From positions 234,321 to 298,320 of the IMG/VR virus record IMGVR_UViG_3300020156_000001: DNA of 64,000 nucleotides; one strand, written 5' to 3'. The position numbers and the translations under genes were made by a program. Of this stretch, positions 1 through 62,468 are shown piece by piece. The notes under the pieces are model-generated. The model saw only the letters and a list, made by a program, of their open reading frames with translations. It was not told where the DNA came from and made no database searches. Position 1 is the stretch's first letter; each line of letters starts with the position of its first letter. Source of the stretch: a virus. Its lineage: Duplodnaviria > Heunggongvirae > Uroviricota > Caudoviricetes.

Positions 1-839
1 CGGATCTTGTTTGCAGAAGTTCCACTTTCCGGAAACTTCTTGATCGTTAGCTTGCCCCAGTTGTTGGCCTTCTTTGCCATACCAACTTTAAGTGCGGCGG
101 ACTCAATGTCACGCATAACACTCTTTGTTTCAAGCTCGGTGATCATCGCGTCAAAGCGCAAGGAAACCAAGTTTTCCGAAAGTTCCAGCGTGATATAAAC
201 GATGTCCATACCTGCCTGAATCCAGTTCAGCGCGAGGTTTTGCAGGAACAAACTCTTACCCGTACCTGGACCACCCGCGAAGAACGTTAGCTCGCCTCGG
301 TTCATCCCACCGTAAAGCTTGGCATCAATATCGCGCCAGCCTGTGCTGATAATACCGTTGCGATCACGCATCGACTGTAGTCGATCCAGAGGATTGCTAA
401 AGTAGTCAGTACCCATATCGGTGTTCAAGGAGATCATCATTGATTCCTTGATACGCTCTTCAACTACACCATACTGTCCTTTGTCTAGAAGAACAGGAGC
501 ATCCATAATGGTGTTTTCAATGCTCTTGTGACGGCAAAAGTTTTCAATGGTTTCAAAGTACCAGGACTCTGCACCAATAACGATTTCCGGCTCTAGCTTT
601 TGTAGCTCAACACCCGTTGTCGCTTGCACAACTTCATTTGGTGCAACTTTGCTGTATTCGGAAAAGTACTCTTTGATAAAGCGGGCAGTCTTACGAAGTT
701 TCTCGTTAAAAAATTCTGGCTGTACGATATCTTGGGAACGTGCAAATGCAGTGTGATCGCTTAGCATATACTCCAGTAGGAGCTTTTGTACTTCGTGTGG
801 ATATTCAATCGGTTCATACGTATTCTTTTTTTCGGACAT
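1..839 (-). CDS. gp41: Replicative DnaB/gp41-like helicase (5' part; runs off window start)
   Basis: Not in the ORF track because it is open-ended. Hand translation from ATG 839: MSEKKNTYEPIEY...ISTGWRDIDAKLYGGMNRGELTFFAGGPGTGKSLFLQNLA...VYITLELSE (Walker A and SF4 helicase motifs). Directly follows primase. Confidence 0.9.
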   Translation of the reverse strand, partial: MSEKKNTYEPIEYPHEVQKLLLEYMLSDHTAFARSQDIVQPEFFNEKLRKTARFIKEYFSEYSKVAPNEVVQATTGVELQKLEPEIVIGAESWYFETIENFCRHKSIENTIMDAPVLLDKGQYGVVEERIKESMMISLNTDMGTDYFSNPLDRLQSMRDRNGIISTGWRDIDAKLYGGMNRGELTFFAGGPGTGKSLFLQNLALNWIQAGMDIVYITLELSENLVSLRFDAMITELETKSVMRDIESAALKVGMAKKANNWGKLTIKKFPESGTSANKI

Positions 840-843
840 AAAT

Positions 844-1890: not shown

Positions 1891-1899
1891 TTCTATTCC

Positions 1900-3636: not shown

Positions 3637-3642
3637 TTGCTA

Positions 3643-3686
3643 CCTCTTCTTATAGTTCTAAATATGTATTTAGAATATAAGATAGG
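3643..3686 (-). promoter_or_regulatory. Late promoter (CTAAATA) inside a 15-bp interrupted hairpin abutting the RBS of the TGT-like gene
   Basis: tcttata 3648-3654 / tataaga 3676-3682 and ttctaaat 3656-3663 / atttagaa 3668-3675; minus-strand CTAAATA at 3667-3673. Confidence 0.55.
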
Positions 3687-3706
3687 AGCGGCGCCTAAGT
3701 CAATTT

Positions 3707-3970
3707 CTAATTGGAAGAAGACCCAAAAAGGAAAGCCCCGAGAATCCAGCAAGCACAACCACTTAGGAACGCGAAGAAAAAGCAGCCATTTTTGTCGATT
3801 TCATCGGTGTCTCCAATGGTAACCTTATAATTATAAGTAAACCATCCGAATATCGGCATTAGGAAGATCGCTGGGATTGTAGTGATAAAGCAGCCAATCA
3901 TGAACATGAACCACTGATCGACTTGTTCTCCATCTGAGATTTGCCGCGAAGTCCACTTCTTCAATGCCAT
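3707..3970 (-). CDS. Small two-TM membrane protein
   Basis: Two hydrophobic segments; RBS aaggaga; preceded by a sigma70-like promoter. Confidence 0.6.
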   Translation of the reverse strand: MALKKWTSRQISDGEQVDQWFMFMIGCFITTIPAIFLMPIFGWFTYNYKVTIGDTDEIDKNGCFFFAFLSGCACWILGAFLFGSSSN

Positions 3971-3991
3971 TTCAATCTCCTTTGTTAGCGC

Positions 3992-4019
3992 GTTCTAACA
4001 CAGGAAACTAGCATGTCAA
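3992..4019 (-). promoter_or_regulatory. Early sigma70-like promoter
   Basis: TTGACA-16 nt-TAGAAC with TG extension (cctgtgtTAGAAC). Confidence 0.55.
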
Positions 4020-4021
4020 CC

Positions 4022-4831
4022 TTAGTTTCTAAACAGGATCTTGGTTAGATTACCCATGTTTAGCTGATCCGGCTTTACCTTGAAACGCACCCATTGCAGA
4101 TTCGCTTCTATGTTGTGGGCAATTACACCCGACGCACGTTCCAGTATGGTTTCATGGCGGTCATCAATGAGAATAGGAAACCAATCGGGTTGATCCGGAG
4201 TATGCTCGACAATGCTGCCCTCAACCCAAATAGAACCCGTAAAGTTTTCCACATACCAAGCCAGCGTATGTAGACCATCAACAGAACCATTACGGAGATT
4301 CCCTTGGAAATTAGGGCTTACCCAGAATGTTTCAAAACGGTTGGAGTTTTCCGGAGAGAATGAACTCCATGCGTATTCCTGCGATTTCAAACCCTCAAGC
4401 TCGCGGCCATAGCGGAGTTCAAAATAACCATGTGCGGTTTCGTATTGGTCTTGGCTTAATAGCTTGGCGTTGCCGTTGTCCATCATGTAGGACACAGAAT
4501 ATCTGTGAAAACCCAGTGGCATGTCCTTGACCATATAGGGCAGGAACGTTAAGCGGCAAATACCACGCACTGCATCAACGATTTCCAATGGTACGCTTGC
4601 CATAGTTTGCCCGCTGTAATAGTTGACCAATGTGGCAAACAATTTACGGCCGGTCAAATTGATGGGCTTACGATCGATATTACGAACAATAAACTCGATA
4701 TCTGTTTGGGAATCTTTGAATGCGAGAAAGTCCGGATTGTGCATGGCCATATTCCTATTCATGTGGACACTGGTGCCCTCAATGGTCAACGAAATGCGTC
4801 GTTTTGTCTCATAGAGAATCTTTGAACCCAT
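4022..4831 (-). CDS. Hypothetical beta-rich protein, possibly virion/baseplate (BppU-N-like first half)
   Basis: 269-aa ORF; IEFIVRNIDRKPINLTG...IVDAVRGICRLTF pattern; TAAATA upstream. Confidence 0.5.
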   Translation of the reverse strand: MGSKILYETKRRISLTIEGTSVHMNRNMAMHNPDFLAFKDSQTDIEFIVRNIDRKPINLTGRKLFATLVNYYSGQTMASVPLEIVDAVRGICRLTFLPYMVKDMPLGFHRYSVSYMMDNGNAKLLSQDQYETAHGYFELRYGRELEGLKSQEYAWSSFSPENSNRFETFWVSPNFQGNLRNGSVDGLHTLAWYVENFTGSIWVEGSIVEHTPDQPDWFPILIDDRHETILERASGVIAHNIEANLQWVRFKVKPDQLNMGNLTKILFRN

Positions 4832-4905
4832 ATCACACCCGTGCTGAATTTGTCCTTTTATAAATAGAAAGGTACCCGATATTTAGCTAAAACTCCTCGG
4901 TCTTC

Positions 4906-5268
4906 ATGCAAAAAACACTTGAAAAATTCCCATTCCTTACTCATGGCACATACGTGGACACTGAGTACCTGGGAATCGTAGGCAACTCAGATAATCAAAT
5001 TATCTCCATGTATGTGTATGGAGACTTGCCAACGGATGAGCTAAAGAAGTTGTTTTTGGAACTGGGAGAAGAATGGTGGTGGGAAACAAATCGACAGCTT
5101 CCCATTAATATCGCACTAAAGCAGAAGTGGGCTGTTTTCCGCCCTTATATGAAAACCTTCATTACAAAAGATTTCCAACTACATTGCGGTCCCTGCGTTA
5201 GCTTGGACGATTTGACTTCCAAGCGTATCAAGCGCCGTCAAATCCAGCTAGTTAAGAAGCTGAAGTAA
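4906..5268 (+). CDS. Hypothetical protein
   Basis: 120-aa ORF preceded by TATAAATA (4859-4866). Confidence 0.6.
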   Translation: MQKTLEKFPFLTHGTYVDTEYLGIVGNSDNQIISMYVYGDLPTDELKKLFLELGEEWWWETNRQLPINIALKQKWAVFRPYMKTFITKDFQLHCGPCVSLDDLTSKRIKRRQIQLVKKLK

Positions 5269-5836
5269 CTTTCTCTACCATAAGATTCAACTGCACAACA
5301 ATAACCAGCGCATATGAAATTGCGTGAGACTTTTTAAAACGATAAGCATCGTTTCCATCATCTACCCAAATCTCAGCCTCAATTTCAGACCAGCTTTTGC
5401 CAATCAAATACTGCTTGGCCGGACGAATCATTGCGAGTACCATTGCCAGTTGTTCAACCGACGTTGGCTTCATCTTACTTACGATATTGTAGTGGTTGTG
5501 TAGCTGGAACAAATCCTCAACCACAATCTGATCCTCGAGAAGAGCCCATATCGGTGGCTTACTCATCAAGGCTTGCAAATGTGCTTCATCGCGCACATCC
5601 TTGTAAATGGACAAGTTTAGAAAGTCCATCTTGAAGAAACCGTTAGCTTCGGCTTGTTCATAAGGAATGCTGCAAAGACCTGTAATTGGATCCGTGGGAA
5701 CCTCATGCAGATAAACGCCAACGTTGTGGCGTTTTAATTGCTTATCCTTTACCAGACTTGCTGCGGTGTGCGCGATATGCTTGAGAGCTTCATCGCGATC
5801 AGCAAAGTCGATATCAATGTCTGTGACTTTTTTCAT
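5252..5836 (-). CDS. Miniature DNA polymerase III alpha (DnaE)-like catalytic core
   Basis: TDIDIDF (cf. PDFDVDF), HNVGVY (cf. HAGGVV), KMDFLNL (cf. KFDFLGL) and YRFKKSHAISYA (cf. YGFNKSHSAAYA) in only 194 aa. Confidence 0.8.
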   Translation of the reverse strand: MKKVTDIDIDFADRDEALKHIAHTAASLVKDKQLKRHNVGVYLHEVPTDPITGLCSIPYEQAEANGFFKMDFLNLSIYKDVRDEAHLQALMSKPPIWALLEDQIVVEDLFQLHNHYNIVSKMKPTSVEQLAMVLAMIRPAKQYLIGKSWSEIEAEIWVDDGNDAYRFKKSHAISYALVIVVQLNLMVEKVTSAS

Positions 5837-6048
5837 AGGAAGATAAGTTTGAATTCCATCGCATCGGTTTTGTTATCGAAGATCAATTCGTATGTGCTGC
5901 CATATTCTTCACGCTCCTTGTTAACAAGTTGACGTGCAAAGTGCTTTGGCTTCCTACGAATAAGCCATTCAGTAAGTTCCTTGGCAAGCTCTGGTTCAAG
6001 CTCGCTTACATAAAACACCAATGGTTTATCTTCAGTGTGTCGGAACAT
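5833..6048 (-). CDS. Hypothetical protein with C-terminal F-x-x-K-x-DA-x-x-FKL motif
   Basis: 71 aa; LIFDNKTDAMEFKL; overlaps the next gene by 4 nt (coupled). Confidence 0.55.
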   Translation of the reverse strand: MFRHTEDKPLVFYVSELEPELAKELTEWLIRRKPKHFARQLVNKEREEYGSTYELIFDNKTDAMEFKLIFL

Positions 6049-6056
6049 AGCTGGCC

Positions 6057-6551
6057 TTACTTCGTATTGTCAACGATAACGTGAAATGGATTCTTTTTTA
6101 CTTCCACTTTTGGTTCAGGGCGCGGAGGAATATAAGCGTCCCAATCGAAGCGGAAGGTGCGACGGAAATCAACAACAATGCGTGATTCCTTTGGGCGCAT
6201 GATGGTCATTTCATCAAAGCCAGTAACGCCATCCACACGAGACATTTTCACGATAGCTGAGGCAAAGAACCGGAACGTGCTGAATGGTTCTTTGTAGCGG
6301 ATGGTGAGATCATCCAAAGGCGTATCCGGACCCAATAGATCAAAGCATTTGAACAAGAGGAGTTGATAATGGATCATTTCCAAATCACTCCAACGGGTAC
6401 GATTACGGAATGGTTCTTGGTCTTTTAGTTCATCCAATAGAACGTCCGACTTGTACCAAACCTCATTTAGGAAAATTTCATCGCGATCGGTAAGTTCAAC
6501 AACCCAATTGATCGCATTGAGGCTGTCTACGAAATCTACTCTAACTTGCAT
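6057..6551 (-). CDS. Hypothetical protein
   Basis: 164-aa ORF in a tightly packed operon. Confidence 0.6.
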   Translation of the reverse strand: MQVRVDFVDSLNAINWVVELTDRDEIFLNEVWYKSDVLLDELKDQEPFRNRTRWSDLEMIHYQLLLFKCFDLLGPDTPLDDLTIRYKEPFSTFRFFASAIVKMSRVDGVTGFDEMTIMRPKESRIVVDFRRTFRFDWDAYIPPRPEPKVEVKKNPFHVIVDNTK

Positions 6552-6910
6552 TAATTGCCTCTATAGGACTTCGACTTGATGGTGCTTGCCATCGCGATTT
6601 TAAGCTTTTCGATCTCTACATGGGCACGTTGAATTGAACGTGTAGCCCGGCGTAGGTCTTCGCCCTGCTGGCGAGTCAAAGTTCTAAATTCTTTGATTTG
6701 GTCTTCGAGAAGTTTGATATATGCGGCACTAGGAATAGTCACATAACGACCGTTGATTTCAACTTCGTGCATGTGGCCGTTGGTCAGTTTAAGACCGCTG
6801 AGACGTTGATGTGCCGGAGGAATAACCTTTGGCGCTTCAGGCTTTGCTACTGGCTGCGCTGGTGCTGCCTTGCGCGGGCCATACATGCTGGAATAAAAAT
6901 CATCGCTCAT
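6551..6910 (-). CDS. Hypothetical coiled-coil protein
   Basis: 119 aa; RBS aggag; TAAATA upstream. Confidence 0.6.
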   Translation of the reverse strand: MSDDFYSSMYGPRKAAPAQPVAKPEAPKVIPPAHQRLSGLKLTNGHMHEVEINGRYVTIPSAAYIKLLEDQIKEFRTLTRQQGEDLRRATRSIQRAHVEIEKLKIAMASTIKSKSYRGN

Positions 6911-6934
6911 TGGTGCTCTCCTATCACGTATTTA

Positions 6935-7642
6935 TCAAACACCAGCCGCACGCAAGTTGAATTTGATAGCTCGGACTTCCTCCGAGTAATACTCGAACTT
7001 CTTGAACCAAAAGTTTGCGTCCAACAGTTCCTTAATCATCATTAGCTGCTCATCTGACAAGCGTTCGATAAGCTCATCACCTACCGTGAAAAGCAGCCAA
7101 GGACTTAGACGTCCCGCCTTAATCCATCGTGTGGCTTGAACCGTACTTACGTTGCGGAAAAAGTCGGTCCACTCTTCACCAGTTTCTCTAGCCCATTGCT
7201 CCATTAGTAGGATATTGCGCTCAAGTGCTTTGTCTGGATGCTCTTTCTTCCCAAGCTCCCTGATCCAAATCTCGTATGGACGCGGCAATGTCCAATCATC
7301 AAGCTTGACGTTTGTACGGATTAGAAAGTCGGTAAACCCCATGGGATCCAGCGCGTTGATATCGACTAGGTATTTGCCGAACTTAATAAACGCGCTGTAA
7401 TATTGAGAGTCGATAAAGTCCTCTTGTGTTTTAGGCTTTTTTGACTTCATGCTGATTTCGTAAAACAGTTGGTACGCGCGGAACCCCATCATCGCGTACT
7501 TTTCATCTTTCCAAAGCCACCGGCGCTTTTTCTCACAAGTATGGGAAATCAGCGTCTTTTCCGTCGAATAAGGATGCTTGCAAAAGTCGCAAACAAACTT
7601 GATTGGCTCCGCTTTGACTACTGCCTTAGGCTTTCTTGCCAT
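6935..7642 (-). CDS. Hypothetical protein with N-terminal Zn-finger-like motif
   Basis: Start reassigned to MARKPK (ATG 7642); CDFCKHPYSTEKTLISHTCE. Confidence 0.6.
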   Translation of the reverse strand: MARKPKAVVKAEPIKFVCDFCKHPYSTEKTLISHTCEKKRRWLWKDEKYAMMGFRAYQLFYEISMKSKKPKTQEDFIDSQYYSAFIKFGKYLVDINALDPMGFTDFLIRTNVKLDDWTLPRPYEIWIRELGKKEHPDKALERNILLMEQWARETGEEWTDFFRNVSTVQATRWIKAGRLSPWLLFTVGDELIERLSDEQLMMIKELLDANFWFKKFEYYSEEVRAIKFNLRAAGV

Positions 7643-8186
7643 AGTTGTCTCTGTATTCCTTAACCACTGCTTTGATCTCAGGATCGGATGCACCAAACTG
7701 TTTGGCTAGTTCCTTAACTTCATCCTCATTTGCAAGCTTGCCCTTCAGGATGTCAATTTCCGTGTTAGAAACTAGCGGGTGCATTTGTAGGAAATAGTTA
7801 TCCAGCAGTGGAGTCTTGCTTACTTTGCCTTTGGGCATCATCCACTTATGGCGTGGTGTGCGCGAGCTAAGTGTGGAAGCAACCGTTGCCAACAGCTTCC
7901 ATTGCAACTCCGGATGCTTGGACATTTTCCAAAACCCATTGTTCACAAACGTATTTACGAGCTGTGGCGAATTGACCGGATCACTTTCACTCAGCGATAC
8001 CCATCGCATGAGGATTAGCGGGCTGATCTCCTTGCGTTGATCTTCCGTGCAATTTGCGTAGAAGTTCAAGTCACCCTTGTATAGGGCAGGCAAGGTTTGA
8101 CCAAACAAGTCAAGCTTGTATTCCTTCTTCTTAGGCTCCTTCTTGGGCTCAGCTGAAGTTTTCGCAGATGATTTTTTCGCTGTCAC
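7626..8186 (-). CDS. Putative clamp-loader small subunit (T4 gp62-like)
   Basis: ISPLILMRWVS...VNTFVN...KHPELQWKLL...HKWM pattern resembles gp62-like proteins; replication context. Confidence 0.45.
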   Translation of the reverse strand: MTAKKSSAKTSAEPKKEPKKKEYKLDLFGQTLPALYKGDLNFYANCTEDQRKEISPLILMRWVSLSESDPVNSPQLVNTFVNNGFWKMSKHPELQWKLLATVASTLSSRTPRHKWMMPKGKVSKTPLLDNYFLQMHPLVSNTEIDILKGKLANEDEVKELAKQFGASDPEIKAVVKEYRDNYGKKA

Positions 8187-8406
8187 TTTGGTATCCTAAT
8201 CTGAAATGTACGGCATCTTTATTAGAGGAAAACGCAATTTCAATACCCTTGAAACCCCGCGTACTATCATCATAACGCGATGATATGTTCCACTTTTCAT
8301 ACTTATCCTTGCAGGAATGGACCATAAAGCGATTGATGTATTGGATCACTTCCAGCTTTTTGGTCGTGTCGGAAAACATGATTTTAATACGGTATGGGTA
8401 TTGCAT
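8149..8406 (-). CDS. Hypothetical protein with C-terminal F-x-x-x-x-DA-x-x-FRL motif
   Basis: 85 aa; IAFSSNKDAVHFRL. Confidence 0.5.
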   Translation of the reverse strand: MQYPYRIKIMFSDTTKKLEVIQYINRFMVHSCKDKYEKWNISSRYDDSTRGFKGIEIAFSSNKDAVHFRLGYQSDSEKIICENFS

Positions 8407-8461
8407 AGGGTTGTCCTCTGATCTCTTAGCAGCCTACTAGGTTGGGATCCAGGACGTCAAT

Positions 8462-8941
8462 TTATTTAAACTGGCGAGTTCTCCCCGCACGAATGTTTCG
8501 GACTGTGGACTCACTTACATTGAACAGCGAGGCCAGCAGTTTGGTTTCCATTGTACTCGCACGTATCGTACACACATCATCCCACGTCAATGAGTGCAGT
8601 CGTAGCTCACCCGGCGGTCCTAGTTGCGCGGTAACACTTGCGTAGGTACGGCCGAATTTGATGTTGTTGGCTACACTCTTGGAAATTCCATATATTGCAT
8701 TGAGCTGAGCTAGAGTTCCAGTGAACTCGTAGATTTCCTTGACCATGTCATCGGTGAGGATTTTCCTATGGCTTCGGGGCTGAACCGGAAACATAAGGTA
8801 TTGTCCGGTAATGTCTCCACGGGTACGACCCTTTTTAACTGAGCGGATTGTGAATGTGGAAACTCCATAGTCGGCGGCCAACTTTGCAGTGGGATCGCTA
8901 CTCAAATAGATTTCTACGATTTGATCGTCTGTGAGCTTCAT
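8462..8941 (-). CDS. Triple helix-turn-helix repeat DNA-binding protein
   Basis: Three ~50-aa repeats: LTDDQIVEIY...LAADYGVSTFTIRSVKKGRT; LTDDMVKEIY...LNAIYGISKSVANNIKFGRT; LTWDDVCTIR...LASLFNVSESTVRNIRAGRT. Confidence 0.7.
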   Translation of the reverse strand: MKLTDDQIVEIYLSSDPTAKLAADYGVSTFTIRSVKKGRTRGDITGQYLMFPVQPRSHRKILTDDMVKEIYEFTGTLAQLNAIYGISKSVANNIKFGRTYASVTAQLGPPGELRLHSLTWDDVCTIRASTMETKLLASLFNVSESTVRNIRAGRTRQFK

Positions 8942-52957: not shown

Positions 52958-53065
52958 TTGACATTGACGTCCTCACCGTTTATAAATAAAGGTACGTTGA
53001 AGCGAATGTGTTGATCCCGGTCACATGTTACGCCAGGCGGCATAAGTGGCCCATCTACGGTGAGG
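52958..53065 (+). promoter_or_regulatory. Composite sigma70/late promoter and structured leader of NAD operon
   Basis: TTGACA (52958-52963)-17 nt-TATAAA overlapping TATAAATA (52981-52988); cctcaccgt 52971-52979 is complementary to acggtgagg 53057-53065. Confidence 0.6.
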
Positions 53066-54880
53066 ATCATGTTAAAAAATATAGCTGTGCTTCAGCTCAA
53101 TCCTATTGTCGGCGATATCGCCGGAAACTTCAAGAAAATCGTCGAAGGTTATGAGAACGCTCGCGCCCAAGGTGCCGAGCTTGTCGTTACCGGCGAATGT
53201 GCTCTTACAGGATATCCTATTGAGGATCTTGTATTGCGTCCATCCTTTATGGAAGCTGTCGAAGAGCAAGCAGAACAACTTATCAAATTAATTGCTCTTA
53301 CCGACGGTCCATCGCTGATCTTTGGAACACCCATGCGGATTCGCAATGGGCTGCTTGGAGCAAACAAGCTCTACAACACTGCAATTTTAGCTTATTCGCT
53401 TTCCGACTACCAAGCCACTTTTGGTAACACCGTTACAAAGCCAATGAACTACTCGGTTCACGCCAAACACGAGCTGCCCAACTATGGGGTGTTTGATGAA
53501 AAGCGCGTGTTCAACAGTTCGCCCGTGCATGACATTCGGGCAGTTAAATGGCATGACTTTTGGCTTGGAATCATGGTTTGCGAAGACACTTGGTTTCCAA
53601 CAGTTAGCCGAGAGCTTGCACTTAGCGGCGCCGACTTTCTCATCTCGATCAACGGTTCTCCCTATGAAGATGGCAAGCGCGTAACTCGCCGGCAAATTGT
53701 TGCTAACCGCATGAAGGAAACTGGCCTTCCAATGCTTTATGTGAATCTTGTCGGTGGGCAGGATGAACTGGTGTTTGATGGCGGATCGTTTGGCTTTGAT
53801 GGCGAAACGATGTTTGAAATGCCCGAGTTTGCAGAAATTCGCAATCACTGGAACGCTCAGTTTATCAGCCAATCACTTCGCGATCTTCCTTTGGAAGGCG
53901 AACGTTTGGAGCCAACCAATCATCCTTTGGATTGGTCCAAGTGGGTTATGGTAACCCCAGGTGATGTTGGACATACTTACCGTGCAAGTGTTCTCGCAAC
54001 ACAAGACTATCTGCAAAAACAAGGCTTTACCGATGTTGTTATCGGTTATTCCGGCGGTGTTGACTCCGGCCTAGTTGCTGCGATTGCAGTTGATGCGTTG
54101 GGTCCCGAACACGTTACGTTGGTGTCGTTGCCATCGAAGTTTTCTTCGCAACACTCCAAGGATGATGCGCAAGAAGGTGCAAAGCGTTTGGGCGCTGAGT
54201 ATCGCGTGATCCAAATTGAGCCGGTTGTTGCGGCTCTCCGAATGGCTTATCAAAGCCAAGTTATCCCAGGCAATTTTGAGGATCCGCAGGACTTCTCACG
54301 CAAGCTTACTGGCACGGCTGATGAAAACATTCAAGCTCGCGCACGTGGTACAATCCTCATGGCAATCTCAAACCAGGAAGGCAAAGTTGTTCTAACTACG
54401 GGCAACAAGAGTGAAGTATCGGTTGGGTATGCTACGCTTTACGGTGACATGGCCGGCGGCTTTAACCCAATTAAGGACTTCTATAAGACTCGCGTTTGGG
54501 CAGCTTGCCGTTGGAGAAACGCGCTCGATGCGGGTCAGTGTATTGAATTTGGCTTGTATGGTCCTCACGATACGGATGTTGTTCCTGAGGAAATCATTGT
54601 AAAGCCACCGAGCGCAGAGCTTCGGCCGGATCAAATGGATTCTGATAGTTTGCCCCCGTATGAGGTTCTTGATGATATTCTCCACAAGATGATTGAGGAA
54701 GAATTATCAGTCAAGGATATCATCAACAGTGGTCACAAAGAAGAACAGGTACTCAGAGTTCGAAGACTGGTTGACATTGCCGAATATAAGCGTAGACAGA
54801 GTGCACCAGGTGTAAAAACAACAAACAAGTTGCATGGTCGGGAACGTCGTTACCCAATCGTCAACAAGTGGAGAAACTAA
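53060..54880 (+). CDS. nadE: Glutamine-dependent NAD+ synthetase
   Basis: Nitrilase E-K-C triad (GECAL, KHELPNYGVFDEKR, VCEDTW) plus GYSGGVDS, TTGNKSE, YATLYGD and PPSAEL. Confidence 0.95.
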   Translation: MRIMLKNIAVLQLNPIVGDIAGNFKKIVEGYENARAQGAELVVTGECALTGYPIEDLVLRPSFMEAVEEQAEQLIKLIALTDGPSLIFGTPMRIRNGLLGANKLYNTAILAYSLSDYQATFGNTVTKPMNYSVHAKHELPNYGVFDEKRVFNSSPVHDIRAVKWHDFWLGIMVCEDTWFPTVSRELALSGADFLISINGSPYEDGKRVTRRQIVANRMKETGLPMLYVNLVGGQDELVFDGGSFGFDGETMFEMPEFAEIRNHWNAQFISQSLRDLPLEGERLEPTNHPLDWSKWVMVTPGDVGHTYRASVLATQDYLQKQGFTDVVIGYSGGVDSGLVAAIAVDALGPEHVTLVSLPSKFSSQHSKDDAQEGAKRLGAEYRVIQIEPVVAALRMAYQSQVIPGNFEDPQDFSRKLTGTADENIQARARGTILMAISNQEGKVVLTTGNKSEVSVGYATLYGDMAGGFNPIKDFYKTRVWAACRWRNALDAGQCIEFGLYGPHDTDVVPEEIIVKPPSAELRPDQMDSDSLPPYEVLDDILHKMIEEELSVKDIINSGHKEEQVLRVRRLVDIAEYKRRQSAPGVKTTNKLHGRERRYPIVNKWRN

Positions 54881-54882
54881 CA

Positions 54883-56208
54883 ATGAGCATGGTCAATATC
54901 GCCCAGCGCGTTCACAATCACAACTATAAGCTGGACCCGATTGTCCGCTCACTGTTGGACACCGACTTTTACAAGCTGCTTATGATGCAGTTTATCTTCA
55001 AGCACTATGCGGATATTCCCGTTACGTTTGCGTTGAAGAATCGCACAAAAAGCGTTCGGCTTACTGGCGATGTTTCCTATGCGGATCTTCGCGCACAACT
55101 CGACTATGTAAAGAACTTGCGCTTTACAAACACGGAGTTGATCTGGCTGCAGGGTAACACCTTCTACGGCAAGGTCGGCATGTTTGAGCCCGAGTTCATC
55201 AACTACTTGCGGACATTCCAACTCCCCGACTACGAACTTAACGGCTCCTACGACACTTCCGACAATGAAGCTATCCACTTGGAATTCAAGGGCACGTGGC
55301 TGGAAGTTACGCTTTGGGAAATCTACGCGCTATCGATCGTCAACGAGCTGCGCAATCGCAAAGCAATGGAACGCATGAGCGAGTTCGATCTCGACATCAT
55401 GTATGCGCGTGCCAAGACCAAGCTTTGGGCCAAGTTTGAAAAGCTCAAGAACCTCGATGGTCTAAATCTCACTGATTTTGGTACACGCCGTCGCCACAGC
55501 TTTCTCTGGCAGGAATGGGCCGTTACGGCTGCTCGTGCTGCGCTTGGCGACAAGTTCACAGGCACTTCCAATGCTTACTTGGCAATGAAGCACAACTTGG
55601 AAGCAAAGGGTACCAACGCACACGAACTTCCAATGGTTCTTGCTACTCTCGCCGGCAACGACGAGGAACTCAAGCAAAGCCAGTACAAGGTGCTGGTCAA
55701 GTGGCAAGACACTTACGATGGTGCGTTGTTGATCGCACTACCCGATACGTTTGGAACAACTCAGTTCCTACGCGATGCACCGGAATGGCTGAACAAGTGG
55801 ACTGGCTTCCGCTATGATTCGAAGGATCCCAAGACCGCCGGCTACGAAACCATCGAATGGTGGAAGAGCCGTGGTGTTGACCCCAAGACCAAGCTTGGTC
55901 TGTTTAGCGATGGTCTTGATGCCGACGACATTGTTGAGCTGCAAAATGAATTCCGCGGCAAGATGCGCGTTGGTTTCGGCTGGGGCACATTGCTTACCAA
56001 CGACTTCCGTGGTTGCCACCCCAATGAGGAACTGGCTGCATCGCTTGCACCGATCTCGCTTGTATGCAAGGTCAAGGAAGCAAATGGTCGTCCCGCTGTA
56101 AAGCTTTCGGACAACTATACGAAGGCCACTGGCACGCCGGAAGAAATCCAGCGTTATCGCAACGTATTTGGCACTGATGGCGTTGCAAACGCTCCAGTAA
56201 CAGTGTGA
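54883..56208 (+). CDS. pncB: Nicotinate phosphoribosyltransferase
   Basis: SLLDTDFYKL, DFGTRRRHS, GTSN, GTNAHE, LPDTFGT, RYDSKDP, FSDGLD, FGWGTLLTND and VKLSDN. Confidence 0.95.
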   Translation: MSMVNIAQRVHNHNYKLDPIVRSLLDTDFYKLLMMQFIFKHYADIPVTFALKNRTKSVRLTGDVSYADLRAQLDYVKNLRFTNTELIWLQGNTFYGKVGMFEPEFINYLRTFQLPDYELNGSYDTSDNEAIHLEFKGTWLEVTLWEIYALSIVNELRNRKAMERMSEFDLDIMYARAKTKLWAKFEKLKNLDGLNLTDFGTRRRHSFLWQEWAVTAARAALGDKFTGTSNAYLAMKHNLEAKGTNAHELPMVLATLAGNDEELKQSQYKVLVKWQDTYDGALLIALPDTFGTTQFLRDAPEWLNKWTGFRYDSKDPKTAGYETIEWWKSRGVDPKTKLGLFSDGLDADDIVELQNEFRGKMRVGFGWGTLLTNDFRGCHPNEELAASLAPISLVCKVKEANGRPAVKLSDNYTKATGTPEEIQRYRNVFGTDGVANAPVTV

Positions 56209-56215
56209 GGCACTA

Positions 56216-56476
56216 ATGGACGAGTATACTTGCTTTTTAGTTGTTGAACACTCGCATAGTGAACCGGAAGCTCGGTTCACGCTAGTGGACGAGGCAACTT
56301 ACCGTGCGGCTGTTGATACCATTGACAGTGAGGGTTGGATTCCTCAAGGCGTTGATCCAATTATTCGGCTTAGTGAGAAGGGCACGTTTACTTCTCCAAT
56401 AAAGCTGATCGAATGGGTTAAGCGGATGAATCTCACTGTTAGCGACGAAGTTCACTCTTGGGCGGATCACGACTAA
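56216..56476 (+). CDS. Small hypothetical protein
   Basis: 86 aa in the NAD operon; RBS gagg. Confidence 0.55.
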   Translation: MDEYTCFLVVEHSHSEPEARFTLVDEATYRAAVDTIDSEGWIPQGVDPIIRLSEKGTFTSPIKLIEWVKRMNLTVSDEVHSWADHD

Positions 56477-56778
56477 TGGCACATGATGTTTACCTTATCG
56501 GCCTTTGGGACGATTACATGACCTACTATATGGTCGATCAAGCCGAGTGGGACAAACTTTCCAAGTCTCGCAAAAGTCTCGGTGATATGGATTGGACTCC
56601 GCTTGTAATTAAGGAGCTCCTCGATCTCACTGACGAGGAACGCGCTGAGTTTGATCGGCTCGATGAAGAAGAGGGTGAAGGCGAATATGACGCCTCCTTC
56701 GATCTTGACGCAATCCTAAGGTTTGTTAAAGAGGGAAAGATCAACGTTTTAGGAACAGCGGAAGGACTTCAGCTATGA
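56476..56778 (+). CDS. Small acidic hypothetical protein
   Basis: Start reassigned to MAHDVY (coupled to the upstream stop); D/E-rich. Confidence 0.55.
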   Translation: MAHDVYLIGLWDDYMTYYMVDQAEWDKLSKSRKSLGDMDWTPLVIKELLDLTDEERAEFDRLDEEEGEGEYDASFDLDAILRFVKEGKINVLGTAEGLQL

Positions 56779-57374
56779 CATCACAAGTTCGCTACATCTA
56801 CAATTTCCCCCGTCCGTCGGTTACTGCAACAATCGCGCTGTTCATCCAATCCTCTTGGAACGCCAGCGTTAGCCATGTTATCCTGGGCCGGCGCGGTCGC
56901 AAAGATGGAACATATGCAGGCTTTCTTTGCTTGCCCGGCGGCTTTCTAGATGCGAAGGTTGATCCCCAAGATGTTTTCGTAATCCCGCAGGGCGGTGGTC
57001 TCCACTTCCGCGATAACGATGTTGCGGATCTTCCAGAGTCTCATGCAAAGCCAGGTGAAACTGTTGAAGAAACTGCAATCCGCGAAGTGTTCGAGGAGAC
57101 TGGCTTGAAGCTTGAGTTGGAACAGTTGGAACTCGCACACGTTCATTCCAATCCAACTACCGATCCTCGCGCCCATGTAGTCAACATCTGCTACTATGTG
57201 GTGATCGATCAGGCCACGGCAAACGCCGCAATCGCCGGCGATGATCTCGAAGAGCTCGTGATGGTTCCCGTTGGTGAAGTTGGTCAGCACAAACTGGCCT
57301 TCAATCACAACGACCTATTCGCGAAGATGCTAAAGGTCGCTCAAGCTGCATATCGCGAAGGCGAGGACCAATAA
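56775..57374 (+). CDS. Nudix hydrolase (ADP-ribose pyrophosphatase-like)
   Basis: RPSVTA, LPGGF...GETVEETAIREVFEETGL, DPR, AGDD and LAFNH. Confidence 0.88.
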   Translation: MTSQVRYIYNFPRPSVTATIALFIQSSWNASVSHVILGRRGRKDGTYAGFLCLPGGFLDAKVDPQDVFVIPQGGGLHFRDNDVADLPESHAKPGETVEETAIREVFEETGLKLELEQLELAHVHSNPTTDPRAHVVNICYYVVIDQATANAAIAGDDLEELVMVPVGEVGQHKLAFNHNDLFAKMLKVAQAAYREGEDQ

Positions 57375-57979
57375 TGAAGCGTCATGCCCATGCCGTAATG
57401 CGGATTCATCCGCTCCATTTGGGGCACACGGCAGTTCTCAATCGTATGAATGAGAACTACGAGACTTGGAGTATTGGTCTTGGTTCTACCGGCCGGCATA
57501 GCGAACCAGGCCATCCGTGGACTCAAGCTCAGCGCACGGAAATGCTTCGCAACGTTTATGGAAATCGGGTGAAGATTGTTCCACTCGAAGATATTGGCGC
57601 GGAGCAGGGCAAGAATACTTGGTGCGAATACGTACTAAGCAAGGCCGAGAAGATTTGGCCTGGTGCACCAATTACTGACTATTTCACCGGCAGTCATGCC
57701 GATGCAATGTGGTACAAGGGTTTGTTTTGGCATGGTGCGGAAGATGATCCGCTCCTTCAAACGCCCGAGTACCAAAAACGCTACTTCACCAAAGAAGGTG
57801 TGCTTCGTCGCTTGCACATCCTCGAACGCTCCGAAACGATCTTTCCCAGCGCCACTGAAGTTCGCACATTCCTAGCAACCCGAAGCGATGAATGGAAGCG
57901 TTGGGTACCGGGGGTCAATCACCAATTGGTTGAATCCACTTACCCTGAACACTTCAAGATCAAAATCGAAGGAGAATAA
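57374..57979 (+). CDS. NadM-like (N)MN adenylyltransferase
   Basis: RIHPLHLGH (HxGH), IGLGS, HPWT...QRTEM and SATEVR. Confidence 0.82.
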   Translation: MKRHAHAVMRIHPLHLGHTAVLNRMNENYETWSIGLGSTGRHSEPGHPWTQAQRTEMLRNVYGNRVKIVPLEDIGAEQGKNTWCEYVLSKAEKIWPGAPITDYFTGSHADAMWYKGLFWHGAEDDPLLQTPEYQKRYFTKEGVLRRLHILERSETIFPSATEVRTFLATRSDEWKRWVPGVNHQLVESTYPEHFKIKIEGE

Positions 57980-57981
57980 CA

Positions 57982-58542
57982 ATGACAAAGAAACTGCTAG
58001 TAATCATCGACACGCAAGCTGATTTCATGCTGTCGACGGGCGCACTTTACGTTACCGGCGCTGAGCAGCTTATCGCTCCAATCAACAACTATCTGCTCAA
58101 CCTTCCCGCAGATATTGATTCGGTCATTATGACCTACGACACACACTTTGCGGATACATATCCGGATTCTGAAGAAGCCAAGCAATTCCCAATTCACTGC
58201 GTCTACAACACGCCGGGCTGGCAGAACGTATTCAACGATGCGTCGATTCTCGGCCGCGATGAAGTCAACTTTTTGCGGCTTGAAAAGCCTGTGTTCGACA
58301 TGTGGGCTACATCCGATACGATGCGCGATAACTTCATCGACGGAGTTAGCAAAAGCGGCGTCAAGGATGTTGTGGTCATTGGGGTGGCCGCCGACTTCTG
58401 TGTTCACTGGGCTGTCAACGGCTTTGTTGAACGCGGCTTCAACGTTGAGATTCCTCGTTCGCTAACCGCGGGTATTGTCAGAGACATTGACACGGTTGTT
58501 GCTGAAGAATACGCCGGCAAGAATGTTAAGGTCATTGACTGA
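57982..58542 (+). CDS. pncA: Nicotinamidase
   Basis: IDTQADFM, GAL, DTH, FPIHC and GVAADFCV. Confidence 0.92.
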   Translation: MTKKLLVIIDTQADFMLSTGALYVTGAEQLIAPINNYLLNLPADIDSVIMTYDTHFADTYPDSEEAKQFPIHCVYNTPGWQNVFNDASILGRDEVNFLRLEKPVFDMWATSDTMRDNFIDGVSKSGVKDVVVIGVAADFCVHWAVNGFVERGFNVEIPRSLTAGIVRDIDTVVAEEYAGKNVKVID

Positions 58543-58991
58543 TGGATTTGGAAATATCCAAACGTATCGATGGTCTCCGTTTTTATACGGAGACCACTTC
58601 TATTACCACGGAAATGCTTAAAGCCAAGCAATGGTCTCCAAAGTATGTTCCTTGGGCGTTTGAATTCCGACCGAAAAATACCCAAGATTTGCTGTCAACA
58701 ATCCGTTTCCATGATAAGATCGGATTGACCGAAAAGATCATAAACGAGCTGAACTTTTATACCAAGCTGAATGAAGTAAGCAAGCTCGAAATCAATAGCT
58801 TGGAAGTTTTCCTAAGTCACAGCTATGCCAGCAGAAAAGAACGAAGCCGAATTGTTTTATACGGCAAAGGCACTCACAGTTTTATCGACTTTGAAGCTTC
58901 CGATTTCAAGTTGGACATTTTCGCCAACGATGCACTTGAAGAGTATACCGAATCACTAATCGCGTTGGCCATAGGGGACGAACCAAAATGA
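58542..58991 (+). CDS. Hypothetical protein
   Basis: 149 aa; coupled in the operon. Confidence 0.55.
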   Translation: MDLEISKRIDGLRFYTETTSITTEMLKAKQWSPKYVPWAFEFRPKNTQDLLSTIRFHDKIGLTEKIINELNFYTKLNEVSKLEINSLEVFLSHSYASRKERSRIVLYGKGTHSFIDFEASDFKLDIFANDALEEYTESLIALAIGDEPK

Positions 58992-59452
58992 TAATCACAA
59001 GTCCAAACTCTTTTGAAGATGCGCTGGGTAAAAGCATCTTCTTGGCCGGCGGTATTACAAATTGTCCGGATTGGCAGGGCCCGGTTGCCAATCGCATTAA
59101 CGAGTTAACCAACCTCGTTATCTTCAATCCGCGGCGTAATGGATGGGATATGAATGCTGATCTTGAAGAATCGCGCAAGCAGATTCTTTGGGAAGACATG
59201 CACTTGAAGCTGTCCGATATTATTCTGTTTTGGTTTCCTGAGGAAACTCTTTGCCCCATCACGCTGTTGGAGCTTGGCAAGTATTTGATGTCCGATGCGC
59301 GGCTGATCGTTGGAACACATCCAAACTATCAGCGTCGGTTTGACGTTGAAGTGCAAACGAGTCTAGTCCGGGATATTCCCGTATGGGATGATTTGGACGC
59401 AATGGTTGATGACATGATCGGCGCGTATCGTATTGGTGCGTTGTCATGGTAA
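58988..59452 (+). CDS. Nucleoside 2-deoxyribosyltransferase-like protein
   Basis: IFLAGGITNCPDWQ, IFNPRR, QILWE, ILFWF and PITLLELG. Confidence 0.8.
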   Translation: MIITSPNSFEDALGKSIFLAGGITNCPDWQGPVANRINELTNLVIFNPRRNGWDMNADLEESRKQILWEDMHLKLSDIILFWFPEETLCPITLLELGKYLMSDARLIVGTHPNYQRRFDVEVQTSLVRDIPVWDDLDAMVDDMIGAYRIGALSW

Positions 59453-59480
59453 GAGGGAGCCAAAGCTCCCTCTATTTTTA
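59452..59480. terminator. Intrinsic terminator between convergent genes
   Basis: agagggagc-caaa-gctccctct then attttt. Confidence 0.8.
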
Positions 59481-62468
59481 TTAAACCGGCTCTAGATCAC
59501 CACTGAGATACCAAGTGTTGGTATCAATTTTGGTAATCGAGAAAATACCGTTCTGCTTTACAATAGTTGAATAACCCGCCTTATAAAGCATAGTAACGCC
59601 GGAAGCTGCACTCAATGTTAGATTGCCTGCACCGGTGTTGATACCTGCGATTGTTGTTGTTGCGCCGTTTGCTACGTATGGGAAAGCAACGCTTGCGTTT
59701 GTTGGAACTGTAAGGGTTTTTGCGTTTGCGTTGCTAAGCAACAAAAGCTTTTCCGCATCAGTTAGAACCAACGTGTAAGTTGTACCAGTGACCGTTGCCA
59801 GCTGAGTTGTTGCTACTGGACCAAGATCACCCTTGTCACCCTTCAAGCCTTGTGGGCCCTGTTCACCACGAACGTTGCCTAGGTTTGTGGTCGAGTTATC
59901 AGTTTTAACTAGAATCAACTCATAGTTGATTAGGTTTGCTGCAATAAAGCCTGGACCACGAACATTACCAGCATCAAACGTGCTGTTGTCGGTGCGTGTG
60001 ATAATCAAGTTGTTGTTGTCAACGGTTGCACTGGAAAAGCCAGGACCGGTTAGACCAATATCACCTTGGTCGCCCTTGTCGCCTTTTTCACCCTTGATTG
60101 TTGCAAGCCAAGCTGTTTCATCACCAACAAATCCATCAGCTACGGCAACTTCATAAGCGGAAATGCCCGGAAGACCTTGTGCGCCACGAACCGATCCAAG
60201 ATCAACAGTGTTGTCATCAGTTTGAGTTAGGACAAGGTTGTCACCAACAATTGCCGCACTCTTATAGCCGGGACCGGTTAGACCAATATCACCTTGATCT
60301 CCCTTGTCTCCCTTGTCGCCCTTGAGTGTTAGGAGCCACTCAGCTTCGGTGCCTACGAAACCTTCTTCCACTGCAACTTCATAAGCAGAAATACCATTAG
60401 TACCAGCACTGCCCATTGGGCCTCGTACAACGCCAACGTTTAGTTCGGTAGTGTCGGTACGTGTGAGTACAAGATCGTCGCCTACGATAGCGGCATTAGT
60501 GAATCCAGGCCCCTCTGGACCAGCTTCACCAGTATCACCCTTATCACCTTGAATACCCTGTTGACCAACAAGCGAAGCCAACCAAGCAGCCTCATCGCCA
60601 CCAAAGCCATTGGCTACAGCAACTTCGTATGCGGATGGACCATCCGCACCGTTTGTACCATTTGTGCCAACAATTGGGCCAACATCAACAGTTGTGTTAT
60701 CAGTGCGAGTTAGAACAAGGTTATTACCATCTAGGGCTGCGCTTGTAAAACCAGGACCTTCCGGACCAGCATCACCTTGATCACCCTTTGCGCCTTCGAT
60801 TGTTGGAATCGTATAAGCGTACTGGTAGAAGCCACCACTTTTGATATAAACGTTACCAGTTGTATAATTGGTGTATAGGTCACCTTCCTGGGAAGCATCA
60901 TTATCGTTTGGCATTGTTGCGCCATAACGCATTGTGGAACCATTAGCACCATCTTGGCCAGCTGGACCCTGAGGACCAACCAAGCTGTTAAGCCAAGAAA
61001 ACACATCGAACTCGTAGCCATTGTCTACGGCAATTTCATATGCGTTCTTACCATTTAGACCAGGTTCGCCCTTTAGCGAAGCAAGCCAAGCGATTTCGTT
61101 GCCACCAACGTAACCATACTCCACAGCGAGTTCATATGCGGACTTACCAGCAACACCCTGAGCACCATCTGTGCCATTTGTTCCGTCAACACCATCAGTG
61201 CCCTGCAAGCTTGCAAGCCATTCCGATGGAGTTCCAGAGAAACCATCAGCTACTGCAAGTTCATATGCGGATTGGCCAGGTAGTCCTTGCTCTCCAGCAT
61301 CACCCTTTTCACCAGGTTCGCCAGGAAGACCTTGATCGCCTTGAATACCTTGTTCACCGGTGTCGCCTTTGTCTCCCTTGAGAGACGCAAGCCAAGTAAC
61401 TTCATCACCGCCAACGTAACCGTTTTCTACAGCAAGTTCATATGCAGATTTGCCATTTGCTCCAGCTGCGCCGTCATCGCCTTGATCGCCCTTATCCCCT
61501 TTAAGTGAAGCAAGCCATTCAGTTAGCGAGCCACCATAACCCTGTGCCACAGCAAGCTCATATGCGGATTCACCGTCTACGCCTGGTAGACCTTGAACAC
61601 CTTGAATACCAAGTTCACCACGCTCACCAGTGTCGCCCTTAGCGCCAACTAGACTTGCAAGCCATTCCGACTCAGTACCCTCAAATCCATTTGCTAAAGC
61701 AATCTCATATGCGGAGTCGCCATCTTCACCAGGAAGACCAGGATCACCTTGGTCGCCTTTAGCTCCGTCTTGACCTGGAACACCCTGAGGTCCTTGATCA
61801 CCAGTATCGCCTTTAACACCACCAAGAGATTCAATCCACTCGGCTTCAGTACCTGTGAAACCGTTGTCCAGTGCTACTTGATAGGCGCTTTTTCCATCAG
61901 CGCCATCCGCGCCGTTAGCTCCATCGGCACCATCTGCACCAACTAGAGAGTCAAGCCAGTCCTGCTGGGTTCCTTCAAAGCCTTCTTCAACTGCAATCTC
62001 ATATGCAGATTTACCAGCAGCGCCTTGTTCACCCGGAACGTTTGCTTGGCTATGAGCAGTAACAAATGCCTTGATATCTGCTGGGGAATAACGACGAACC
62101 TCTTCGCTGTCTGCGAGTGTGATTTCTTCGTCAGAAACTTCACTTACACGGGCGTTATAGGAAAGCTCAACTGCTTCATCAGAACTGATAACTTCGGCCC
62201 ATGTGCCGTCAGCACGTAGGAACTTTTGTTGATCACCAGTTATTGGAGCAGGAACAATACCAGGAGTACCATCGGATAGTTCGGTAGCACCTTCAAACGC
62301 GGCAACGTTGCTTAGGTCTTCTCGGGCCAGAGGAAAGCCACCCAATGTTGTGCCATCGTGGACGACAAGTGTGTCTTTGTCTGTGTCAACTGTCATCTCG
62401 CGAACTTTGCCAGCAAAGGCGCTATGTTCGGCAGTTGTGCCACCACGAAACTGTTTTTCTGTAGCCAT
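59481..62468 (-). CDS. Collagen-like fibre/adhesin protein
   Basis: Mtd-N-like start (FRGGTTAEH...VDTDKDTLVVHDG..GGFPL), Gly-X-Y tracts, 11 (S/N)AY(E/Q)xA...WL repeats and 5 GPG(F/Y)...L...TD repeats. Confidence 0.85.
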   Translation of the reverse strand: MATEKQFRGGTTAEHSAFAGKVREMTVDTDKDTLVVHDGTTLGGFPLAREDLSNVAAFEGATELSDGTPGIVPAPITGDQQKFLRADGTWAEVISSDEAVELSYNARVSEVSDEEITLADSEEVRRYSPADIKAFVTAHSQANVPGEQGAAGKSAYEIAVEEGFEGTQQDWLDSLVGADGADGANGADGADGKSAYQVALDNGFTGTEAEWIESLGGVKGDTGDQGPQGVPGQDGAKGDQGDPGLPGEDGDSAYEIALANGFEGTESEWLASLVGAKGDTGERGELGIQGVQGLPGVDGESAYELAVAQGYGGSLTEWLASLKGDKGDQGDDGAAGANGKSAYELAVENGYVGGDEVTWLASLKGDKGDTGEQGIQGDQGLPGEPGEKGDAGEQGLPGQSAYELAVADGFSGTPSEWLASLQGTDGVDGTNGTDGAQGVAGKSAYELAVEYGYVGGNEIAWLASLKGEPGLNGKNAYEIAVDNGYEFDVFSWLNSLVGPQGPAGQDGANGSTMRYGATMPNDNDASQEGDLYTNYTTGNVYIKSGGFYQYAYTIPTIEGAKGDQGDAGPEGPGFTSAALDGNNLVLTRTDNTTVDVGPIVGTNGTNGADGPSAYEVAVANGFGGDEAAWLASLVGQQGIQGDKGDTGEAGPEGPGFTNAAIVGDDLVLTRTDTTELNVGVVRGPMGSAGTNGISAYEVAVEEGFVGTEAEWLLTLKGDKGDKGDQGDIGLTGPGYKSAAIVGDNLVLTQTDDNTVDLGSVRGAQGLPGISAYEVAVADGFVGDETAWLATIKGEKGDKGDQGDIGLTGPGFSSATVDNNNLIITRTDNSTFDAGNVRGPGFIAANLINYELILVKTDNSTTNLGNVRGEQGPQGLKGDKGDLGPVATTQLATVTGTTYTLVLTDAEKLLLLSNANAKTLTVPTNASVAFPYVANGATTTIAGINTGAGNLTLSAASGVTMLYKAGYSTIVKQNGIFSITKIDTNTWYLSGDLEPV
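60043..60296. repeat. 26-bp exact direct repeat inside fibre gene
   Basis: ggaccggttagaccaatatcaccttg at 60043-60068 and 60271-60296. Confidence 0.8.

Follow-up and report, generated by a model that had tools for sequence, protein, structure and literature searches.

A jumbo phage operon predicted to encode a self-contained Preiss-Handler-type NAD+ salvage route

Phage routes to NAD+

Rebuilding of nicotinamide adenine dinucleotide (NAD+) is a proven means by which phages escape many NAD+-depleting defences at once, and the routes tested so far are NARP1, NARP2 and NARP3. NARP1 (Adps and Namat) and NARP2 (Nampt and Nmnat) were defined in one study (bioRxiv 10.1101/2024.02.11.579819), the text of which does not contain the terms PncA, PncB, NadE or Preiss, and NARP3 consists of PnuC and NadR (Sci Adv 2026, PMC13464706). 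In the former study, the NARP2 pair of phage KVP40, Nampt and a NadM-type Nmnat, increased NAD+ and did away with defence by Thoeris and by DSR2. The subject of the present work is an operon predicted to encode a deamidating route from nicotinamide to NAD+, which lies in a 64,000-nucleotide stretch of a jumbo phage genome (IMG/VR record IMGVR_UViG_3300020156_000001, positions 234,321 to 298,320; the whole stretch is referred to below as the window, and its positions are counted from its first letter). Such a route would add a fourth input chemistry to the three tested ones.

Iyer et al. (2021, 2022) proposed that phage NAD+ synthesis counters NAD+-cleaving (NADase) effectors, with Nudix domains processing the ADP-ribose. 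Li et al. (2024, Microbiome, PMC11662467) reported complete salvage or Preiss-Handler pathways in 174 of 668 gut jumbo phages, including pncB-nadD-nadE clusters such as that of Kuafu_71. The 2026 report on Xanthomonas phage X1 lists pncB, nadM, nadD, nadE and NAMPT and suggests that they may counter NAD+ depletion (PMC13384950), and a NadM-Nudix fusion has also been described (PMC9503650). The preliminary description of the locus had presented it as a third phage NAD+ pathway, a ranking that is given up here because NARP3 already exists, Preiss-Handler clusters of jumbo phages were published in 2024, and a role against NAD+ depletion was suggested in 2026. For a NadM-based deamidating operon, its linkage to Nudix and its leader, no paper was found in one limited literature collection.

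The operon and its predicted route

The genome, a virus record of 480,347 bp, carries direct terminal repeats and has an estimated completeness of 100%; at >200 kb it belongs to a jumbo phage. Among cultured phages it is closest to Sinorhizobium phage Phosso (469 kb), whose PncB is 82% identical, and to Agrobacterium phage Atu_ph07 (490 kb), where PncB is 64% and NadE 45% identical. This kinship, together with a host-like PncB, points to a host in the Rhizobiaceae. Among sequencing runs, the sequence is listed only for its probable source, a soil metagenome, and for no RNA run.

The operon comprises nine open reading frames (ORFs) on the + strand between 53060 and 59452, the neighbours of which overlap or lie apart by 19 nt at most, with families assigned from Pfam and NCBIfam. 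Five co-transcribed enzymes had been claimed for 53060-58542, and all five are present, tightly packed on one strand and with intact catalytic residues; the enzymes of that interval stand, the start is moved to the ATG at 53069, and the unit is extended to 59452 to take in nine genes. The enzyme set and the deamidating chemistry proposed earlier are likewise supported by family membership and active sites, from which the activities are predicted. In the proposed route, the nicotinamidase PncA would convert nicotinamide to nicotinate, which the nicotinate phosphoribosyltransferase PncB would join to host-made phosphoribosyl pyrophosphate (PRPP), giving nicotinate mononucleotide (NaMN). A NadM/archaeal-type adenylyltransferase, in the place of NadD, would convert NaMN to nicotinate adenine dinucleotide (NaAD), and the glutamine-dependent NAD+ synthetase NadE would amidate NaAD to NAD+. 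Because PncA would make nicotinate and PncB NaMN, the amidation step is unavoidable, hence NadE. The Nudix enzyme would most likely split ADP-ribose into AMP and ribose-5-phosphate, thereby clearing ADP-ribose and returning carbon to the host PRPP synthetase, and the adenylyltransferase could also re-adenylate nicotinamide mononucleotide (NMN) freed by the phage NAD-dependent DNA ligase. The net effect would be to hold up NAD+ through a long jumbo-phage infection. The further suggestion made earlier, that nicotinamide removal would relieve product inhibition of sirtuins, is speculative. With moderate confidence, the locus is therefore read as a self-contained, phage-encoded Preiss-Handler-type NAD+ salvage operon, the likeliest benefit of which is resistance to NAD+ depletion, including that by TIR, SIR2 and SEFIR-type NADases.

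Comparison with described routes

By its predicted gene content, the operon is neither NARP1, NARP2 nor NARP3. In profile searches of the 480-kb genome, the one PF04095 match is PncB, and no second gene of the nicotinate phosphoribosyltransferase (NAPRTase)/Nampt family (NadV, Namat), no Prs/Adps N-terminal domain (PF13793), no PnuC (PF04973), no clear NadD and no Macro or SIR2 domain was found, absences that are soft since the first-look filter of these searches can miss divergent members and the PF01467 search missed the operon's own adenylyltransferase. That PncB is the sole gene found of its family and that no Prs/Adps N-domain was found bears out the earlier claim that the locus is distinct from NARP1 and NARP2. 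Two further ORFs of the genome, both outside the window, were considered and rejected. A second CTP_transf_like ORF (G000:C1:343951-344346, 180 aa), a candidate NadD, has no NCBIfam or PDB assignment, and an AAA_28 P-loop ORF beside a 5'-3' exonuclease (C1:409220-409684, 171 aa), a candidate NadR or nicotinamide riboside kinase, also received no assignment.

Among the closest counterparts are the pncB-nadD-nadE clusters of the NAD-jumbo phages, which like the present locus belong to jumbo phages, group PncB with NadE, specify a full deamidated route, and are known from sequence alone. Unlike those clusters, the operon carries a NadM/archaeal-type adenylyltransferase instead of NadD, and it includes PncA and an ADP-ribose-type Nudix gene, so that its input would be nicotinamide rather than nicotinate. 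The host lineage also differs (soil Rhizobiaceae, as against gut Bacteroidota), and the operon is preceded by a structured leader and a conserved promoter. The operon shares with NARP2 of Vibrio phage KVP40 a NadM-type adenylyltransferase with a Nudix association, the predicted use of nicotinamide, PRPP and ATP, and classical salvage reactions encoded by a phage; it differs from NARP2 in that no Nampt was found in the genome, PncA and PncB replacing its single step, and in having NadE downstream in the route. From the described NadM-Nudix fusion it differs in that NadM and Nudix are separate genes in reversed order. With NARP1 and NARP3 it shares the proposed purpose of rebuilding NAD+ in the infected cell, by other substrates and enzymes, and no PnuC, Adps or Namat/Nampt-family gene was found in the genome. 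NUDIX is mentioned in the Atu_ph07 paper, which also reports NadR and PnuC, genes that this relative would carry in addition; the PncB gene served there only as a marker for the polymerase chain reaction (PMC6102473).

The four predicted reactions are the same as those of the bacterial salvage pathway I (PncA-PncB-NadD-NadE), which is present in Rhizobiaceae. By contrast with that pathway, NadD is replaced by a divergent adenylyltransferase clade, found only on metagenomic and phage contigs, and the genes are viral, lie in one operon, and are joined to Nudix, nucleoside 2-deoxyribosyltransferase (NDT)-like and orphan genes.

Enzymes of the operon

NadE (53069-54880, + strand, 603 aa) contains a glutaminase domain (CN_hydrolase, PF00795) and a synthetase domain (NAD_synthase, PF02540), and scores 632.7 bits against the NAD+ synthase equivalog NF010588 (cut-off 479). 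Its best solved relative is a glutamine-dependent NAD synthetase (4f4h; 428 bits over the full length), with which the PP-loop SGGVDS and the glutaminase Glu, Lys and Cys align. The start is placed at the ATG at 53069, and not at the GTG at 53060 of the ORF list, because of a conserved GAGGATCATG and because the database copy of the protein has 603 aa. PncB (54868-56208, + strand; start possibly the ATG at 54883) exceeds the cut-offs of NF003704 (471 bits; cut-off 379) and TIGR01514 (294.7 bits; cut-off 269.55), and it aligns with 559 bits to PncB of Agrobacterium tumefaciens (1ybe), keeping the histidine of GTNAHE.

The adenylyltransferase (57374-57979, + strand, 201 aa) is, by its motifs and its predicted fold, a divergent NadM/archaeal-type nicotinamide/nicotinate mononucleotide adenylyltransferase (NMNAT) and not NadD. 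Its hidden Markov model matches are weak (cytidylyltransferase-like or archaeal NMNAT), and the assignment rests on motifs and on the order of structural neighbours. It carries RIHPLHLGH and SATEVR, i.e. both the (H/T)xGH and the SxTxxR motif, which are kept in 24 homologues. In a collection of 5.8 billion proteins, 28 relatives were found, every one of metagenomic origin and a number of them on contigs 99-435 kb long, with RxQPxHxGH and S/A-ATExR as common motifs. The AlphaFold model built from the alignment of these relatives has a predicted local distance difference test score (pLDDT) of 92.3, and the first 16 Foldseek ranks (2qjo, 4yp5/4yp6/4yp7, 1f9a, 1hyb, 1m8f/g/j/k, 1ej2; E 2e-9 to 6e-8) are all Synechocystis NadM or archaeal NMNATs, followed by phosphopantetheine adenylyltransferase, with NadD not appearing before rank 31.

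The pairing of a NadM-type enzyme with NadE invites another order of steps. Francisella, as Sorci and colleagues are said to have reported in 2009, pairs NadM with a NaMN-amidating NadE and has no NadD. Were the phage enzymes to work likewise, NadE would amidate NaMN to NMN, from which the NadM-type enzyme would make NAD+ with NaAD never being formed. The present locus resembles that arrangement in combining NadM with a NadE-family enzyme and in the lack of a clear NadD among the profile matches; it departs from it in that PncA and PncB feed the pathway and that NadE, both here and in Phosso, looks like a canonical NAD synthetase. NadE of the window lies well above the cut-off of the NAD+ synthase equivalog and is closest to ordinary glutamine-dependent enzymes, and the Phosso enzyme in the same slot is far nearer to canonical 3dpi (303 bits) than to Francisella 3fiu (120 bits). 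The two unrelated NadE types that alternate in this slot (see below) also fit the generic NaAD reaction better, making the Francisella-like order unlikely. The preferred reading remains that the NadM-type clade of the window accepts NaMN, and it raises an enzymological question, that of NaMN use by a NadM-type enzyme. It has been published as a rule that NadM of phages is always accompanied by NadV, to which the operon would be an exception.

PncA (57982-58542, + strand) has the isochorismatase fold. Nicotinamidase/pyrazinamidase is its top match in NCBIfam, and its closest solved relatives, aligned over their full length, are the nicotinamidases 1ilw and 3pl1. The predicted catalytic residues D10, K102 and C140 and metal ligands D53, H55 and H72 are invariant across six phage homologues; the pairwise alignments place the lysine 2-4 residues off, and its assignment to K102 rests on this invariance. 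An Asp/His/His metal site distinguishes nicotinamidases from other isochorismatase-fold hydrolases.

The Nudix hydrolase (56775-57374, + strand; PF00293, E 2e-14) is most likely, to judge from its sequence, an ADP-ribose pyrophosphatase. Its REx2EE motif is intact (GETVEETAIREVFEETGL), and an insertion of about 35 residues after LPGGFLD parts the first glycine of the Nudix box from the rest. The protein has a proline 16 residues past the box, a feature that we take to mark ADP-ribose pyrophosphatases. The nearest NCBIfam models are the ADP-ribose-responsive NtrR and the Nudix half of NadM-Nudix, all scoring below their cut-offs, and the PDB neighbours are 2yyh, 2fml, NrtR (3gz5) and NadM-Nudix (2qjo). 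The whole genome contains three Nudix genes.

Conservation in related and unrelated phages

A megablast search of 50,697 phage records with the 6.4-kb region found nothing, so that relatives are seen only at the protein level. At least six relatives have the operon. Its gene order is kept in Phosso and on four metagenomic contigs, namely L012 (JGI, 435 kb), L014 (266 kb) and the Logan contigs L016 and L018, and a further contig (L010) contains the operon start. The conserved order runs from lysozyme, a gp15-like gene and two unknowns through NadE, PncB, small ORFs, Nudix, NMNAT, PncA, an orphan of about 150 aa and the NDT-like gene to the tail fibre; L014 is without the NDT-like gene, and no NDT-like family is recorded for L018. 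Judged by gene order, such synteny across Phosso and five metagenomic relatives is not expected by chance. Of the cultured phages with the same genes, Phosso grows on Sinorhizobium meliloti and Atu_ph07 on A. tumefaciens C58.

The NadE slot is filled in two ways. In the window, L016 and L018 it holds the glutamine-dependent enzyme, and in Phosso (L001:6629-7459), L012 (2743-3564) and L014 (679-1497) an ammonia-dependent, single-domain enzyme of 272-276 aa, the ammonia type being present also in L010; the promoter and leader are the same in either case. This argues for selection on the function and not on a particular gene. The exchange has the form of an in-place non-orthologous replacement.

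The same pathway occurs in huge phages unrelated to this clade. Three contigs (L017, 570 kb; L020, 522 kb; L021, 259 kb) carry a fused NadM-Nudix gene, PncB, PncA and a glutamine-type NadE, and a fourth (L011, 517 kb) carries NadM-Nudix, PncB and PncA with no NadE nearby. The NadE proteins of these phages are 56-57% identical to that of the window; between their PncA and NadM and those of the window, only a distant relationship is seen, and the pathway has therefore arisen by assembly more than once. That the genes are passengers picked up from hosts, with no adaptive role, finds some support in the PncB of the window, which is very close to the host-lineage enzyme (see the A. tumefaciens alignment above). 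Against such a passenger origin, the operon is kept, and its catalytic residues stay invariant, across phages in which enzyme identity has fallen to 50-55%. The NMNAT belongs to a phage-specific clade, the promoter and leader are conserved and dedicated to the operon, and other huge phages have assembled the same pathway independently. A passenger origin is thus very improbable.

Several observations concern the wider set of loci. In Atu_ph07 (MF403008, L002:3410-4649), AUZ95019 is homologous to the NadM-type adenylyltransferase (40% identity) and AUZ95018 to PncA (47%); both are annotated as hypothetical and directly follow AUZ95020, which is annotated as ADP-ribose pyrophosphatase. In L021 (positions 250-8755; JGI 3300068059), one island holds NadM-Nudix, PncB, PncA, a porin-like gene, PnuC, a NadR-like AAA_28 gene and NadE, which places genes for deamidating and nicotinamide-riboside salvage side by side. 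On a 646-kb contig of GCA_030012885.1 (L019:7001-12338), which may be phage or bacterial, a related glutamine-type NadE is followed by a gene for a cytidylyltransferase-like protein of 205 aa, with a Prs-like gene 2.5 kb further on.

Putative promoter and leader

A putative sigma-70-type promoter (52958-52986, + strand) precedes NadE, with TTGACA at 52958-52963, a 17-nt spacer and TATAAA at 52981-52986. All three elements are invariant in six related phages, ahead of either NadE type, and the 480 kb of the genome contain 11 copies of the strict motif, compared with 0.6 in shuffled sequence. From this we infer that 52958-52986 acts as a promoter, one that would be read early by the host RNA polymerase, with a transcript start predicted near 52993.

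The promoter is followed by a structured 5' leader (53002-53070, + strand; about 76 nt in all), for which RNAalifold gives two consensus hairpins. Hairpin 1 (53002-53033) has 13 pairs, 7 of them with compensatory changes, and 98.7% of the cells in the six-sequence alignment are paired; its score was reached in none of 500 shuffles, and in slid controls the paired share is only 24-41%. In hairpin 2 (53046-53070), the Shine-Dalgarno sequence GGTGAGGA and the AUG are paired. Since its sequence is invariant, covariation is uninformative for it either way. The leader has no match in Rfam at E <= 10, and the covariance model built from it (R1) matches only the six members of the clade. Further copies were sought with the pattern CCCATN{2,4}GGTGAGGATCATG, which has at least 120 matches in metagenomes; none of the 80 searched fits R1, and they are therefore regarded as chance matches. 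One new viral-contig locus with the pattern (L023) has no R1 match, and another (L022) proved to be the contig of a known relative. A long-range pairing between GATCCTC and the Shine-Dalgarno sequence GAGGATC was dropped because it is lost in L012 and because GATC is palindromic.

The leader is a candidate riboregulator of the operon. With a consensus promoter of host type and a leader masking the ribosome-binding site, host RNA polymerase probably reads the operon, and control is probably exerted at translation initiation. A bolder scheme, which we regard as quite improbable, would make the clade-specific leader a metabolite sensor (e.g. of ADP-ribose, nicotinamide or NAD+) that unmasks the ribosome-binding site only during NAD+ destruction. 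Together with a NadM-type enzyme evolved to accept NaMN, such a sensor would turn the operon into a fourth class of phage NAD+ reconstitution system that responds to defence, in which the NDT-like enzyme and the 149-aa orphan would supply accessory steps. If the leader did respond to a ligand, it would exemplify riboregulation, which is rare among phage metabolic operons.

Resistance to NAD+ depletion or general metabolism

A counter-defence role of the operon is plausible by analogy with NARP2. Several points weigh against the preferred reading of the operon as a whole. To begin with, the deamidating phage route is without experimental precedent, and its four steps, which need PRPP, glutamine and, at up to three of them, ATP, may be too slow or too expensive to outrun a NADase. 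The characterised NadM enzymes (of Synechocystis and Francisella) prefer NMN, so that the NaMN step may be slow or absent. Recycling of ADP-ribose to PRPP would need the host Prs, none having been found in the phage genome. The host lineage owns a PncB (1ybe is the A. tumefaciens enzyme), which makes the phage genes redundant with those of the host and not complementary to them. The operon is embedded among virion genes, with endolysin and gp15-like genes upstream and the tail fibre gene downstream. In Atu_ph07 the genes are dispersed: a Nudix-NMNAT-PncA block is kept, with PncB at 3.4 kb and NadE at a distance of 90 kb. To these may be added the softness of the genome-wide absences on which the comparison with NARP1 to NARP3 draws.

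The operon might instead serve general auxiliary metabolism, supplying NAD+ to the phage ligase and to host energy metabolism after host shut-off, with any help against NADases being incidental. Profile search shows an NAD-dependent DNA ligase in the genome, NARP2 raised NAD+ even where no defence system was present (bioRxiv 10.1101/2024.02.11.579819), and the 'NAD-jumbo phages' have been presented as producing NAD+ for enzymes of their own that consume it (PMC11662467). In addition, no gene of the operon is significant against defence-system models, the only match in a PADLOC search being that of the Nudix protein to PDC-S07 (E 0.005). Set against this, an ADP-ribose-type Nudix stays linked to the pathway, as a separate gene or in a fusion, which points to the handling of NADase products. 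The two readings are compatible and sequence cannot separate them; general metabolism as the main role is possible, if doubtful, and resistance to NAD+ depletion is preferred.

Accessory genes and genomic surroundings

The last gene of the operon (58988-59452, + strand) encodes an NDT-like protein (PF15891, E 4e-21), the best solved relative of which, 4mcj, is uncharacterised. The protein is 60-64% identical in Phosso, L012 and L016, with a mean column identity of 75%. The glutamate of its LLELGK motif is invariant (the motif reads LLEFGK in one relative) and, we assume, sits at the catalytic-glutamate position of the fold. The protein is probably an N-glycosidase or transferase. A terminator-like hairpin with a T-run follows (59452-59473, + strand; 9 pairs, 6 of them G-C), which is a pattern match only.

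Three ORFs of the operon, the two small ones between PncB and Nudix and a 149-aa orphan, have no match in Pfam, NCBIfam, PHROGs or PADLOC. The orphan (58542-58991, + strand) lies directly 3' of PncA, as it does in the relatives, and only 13 representative clusters of it occur among 1.84 billion proteins, with W38, F56, D58, G108, G110, H112, S113 and F122 invariant. Its model (pLDDT 82.6) has no Foldseek match in the PDB and nothing below E 0.02 among AFDB clusters, and the best VIA-align Z score, 5.3, is under the noise level of the tool. An assignment as the OB domain of an mRNA-capping enzyme (Atlas score 0.94, 148 shared features) was rejected, the score being within the range of shuffled proteins and fold searches giving no support.

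The first small ORF (56216-56476, + strand, 86 aa) has a weak Phosso counterpart with 29% identity. The second, which is acidic (56458-56778, + strand), has 106 aa from a TTG and, more likely, 100 aa from the ATG at 56476. Identity of the product is 85% with the Phosso protein and 40-44% with the counterparts in L012 and L014, and an Atlas search with the protein from residue 7 on gave scores of at most 0.82 and no usable match. This acidic ORF of 100-106 aa is, at 85%, better conserved than are the neighbouring enzymes (53-55%). The stretch between PncB and Nudix as a whole is a variable island of small ORFs, with 2 in the window (56216-56778), 4 in Phosso (L001:9331-10327) and 11 in L014 (L014:3046-6062), some of which belong to DUF4170.

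Upstream of the operon lie genes for a phage lysozyme (endolysin) and a T4 gp15-like protein. Downstream and convergent with it is a gene for a probable tail fibre (59481-62468, - strand, 995 aa) with an Mtd_N domain and collagen triple-helix repeats, the equivalents of which vary among the relatives in length and domain content.

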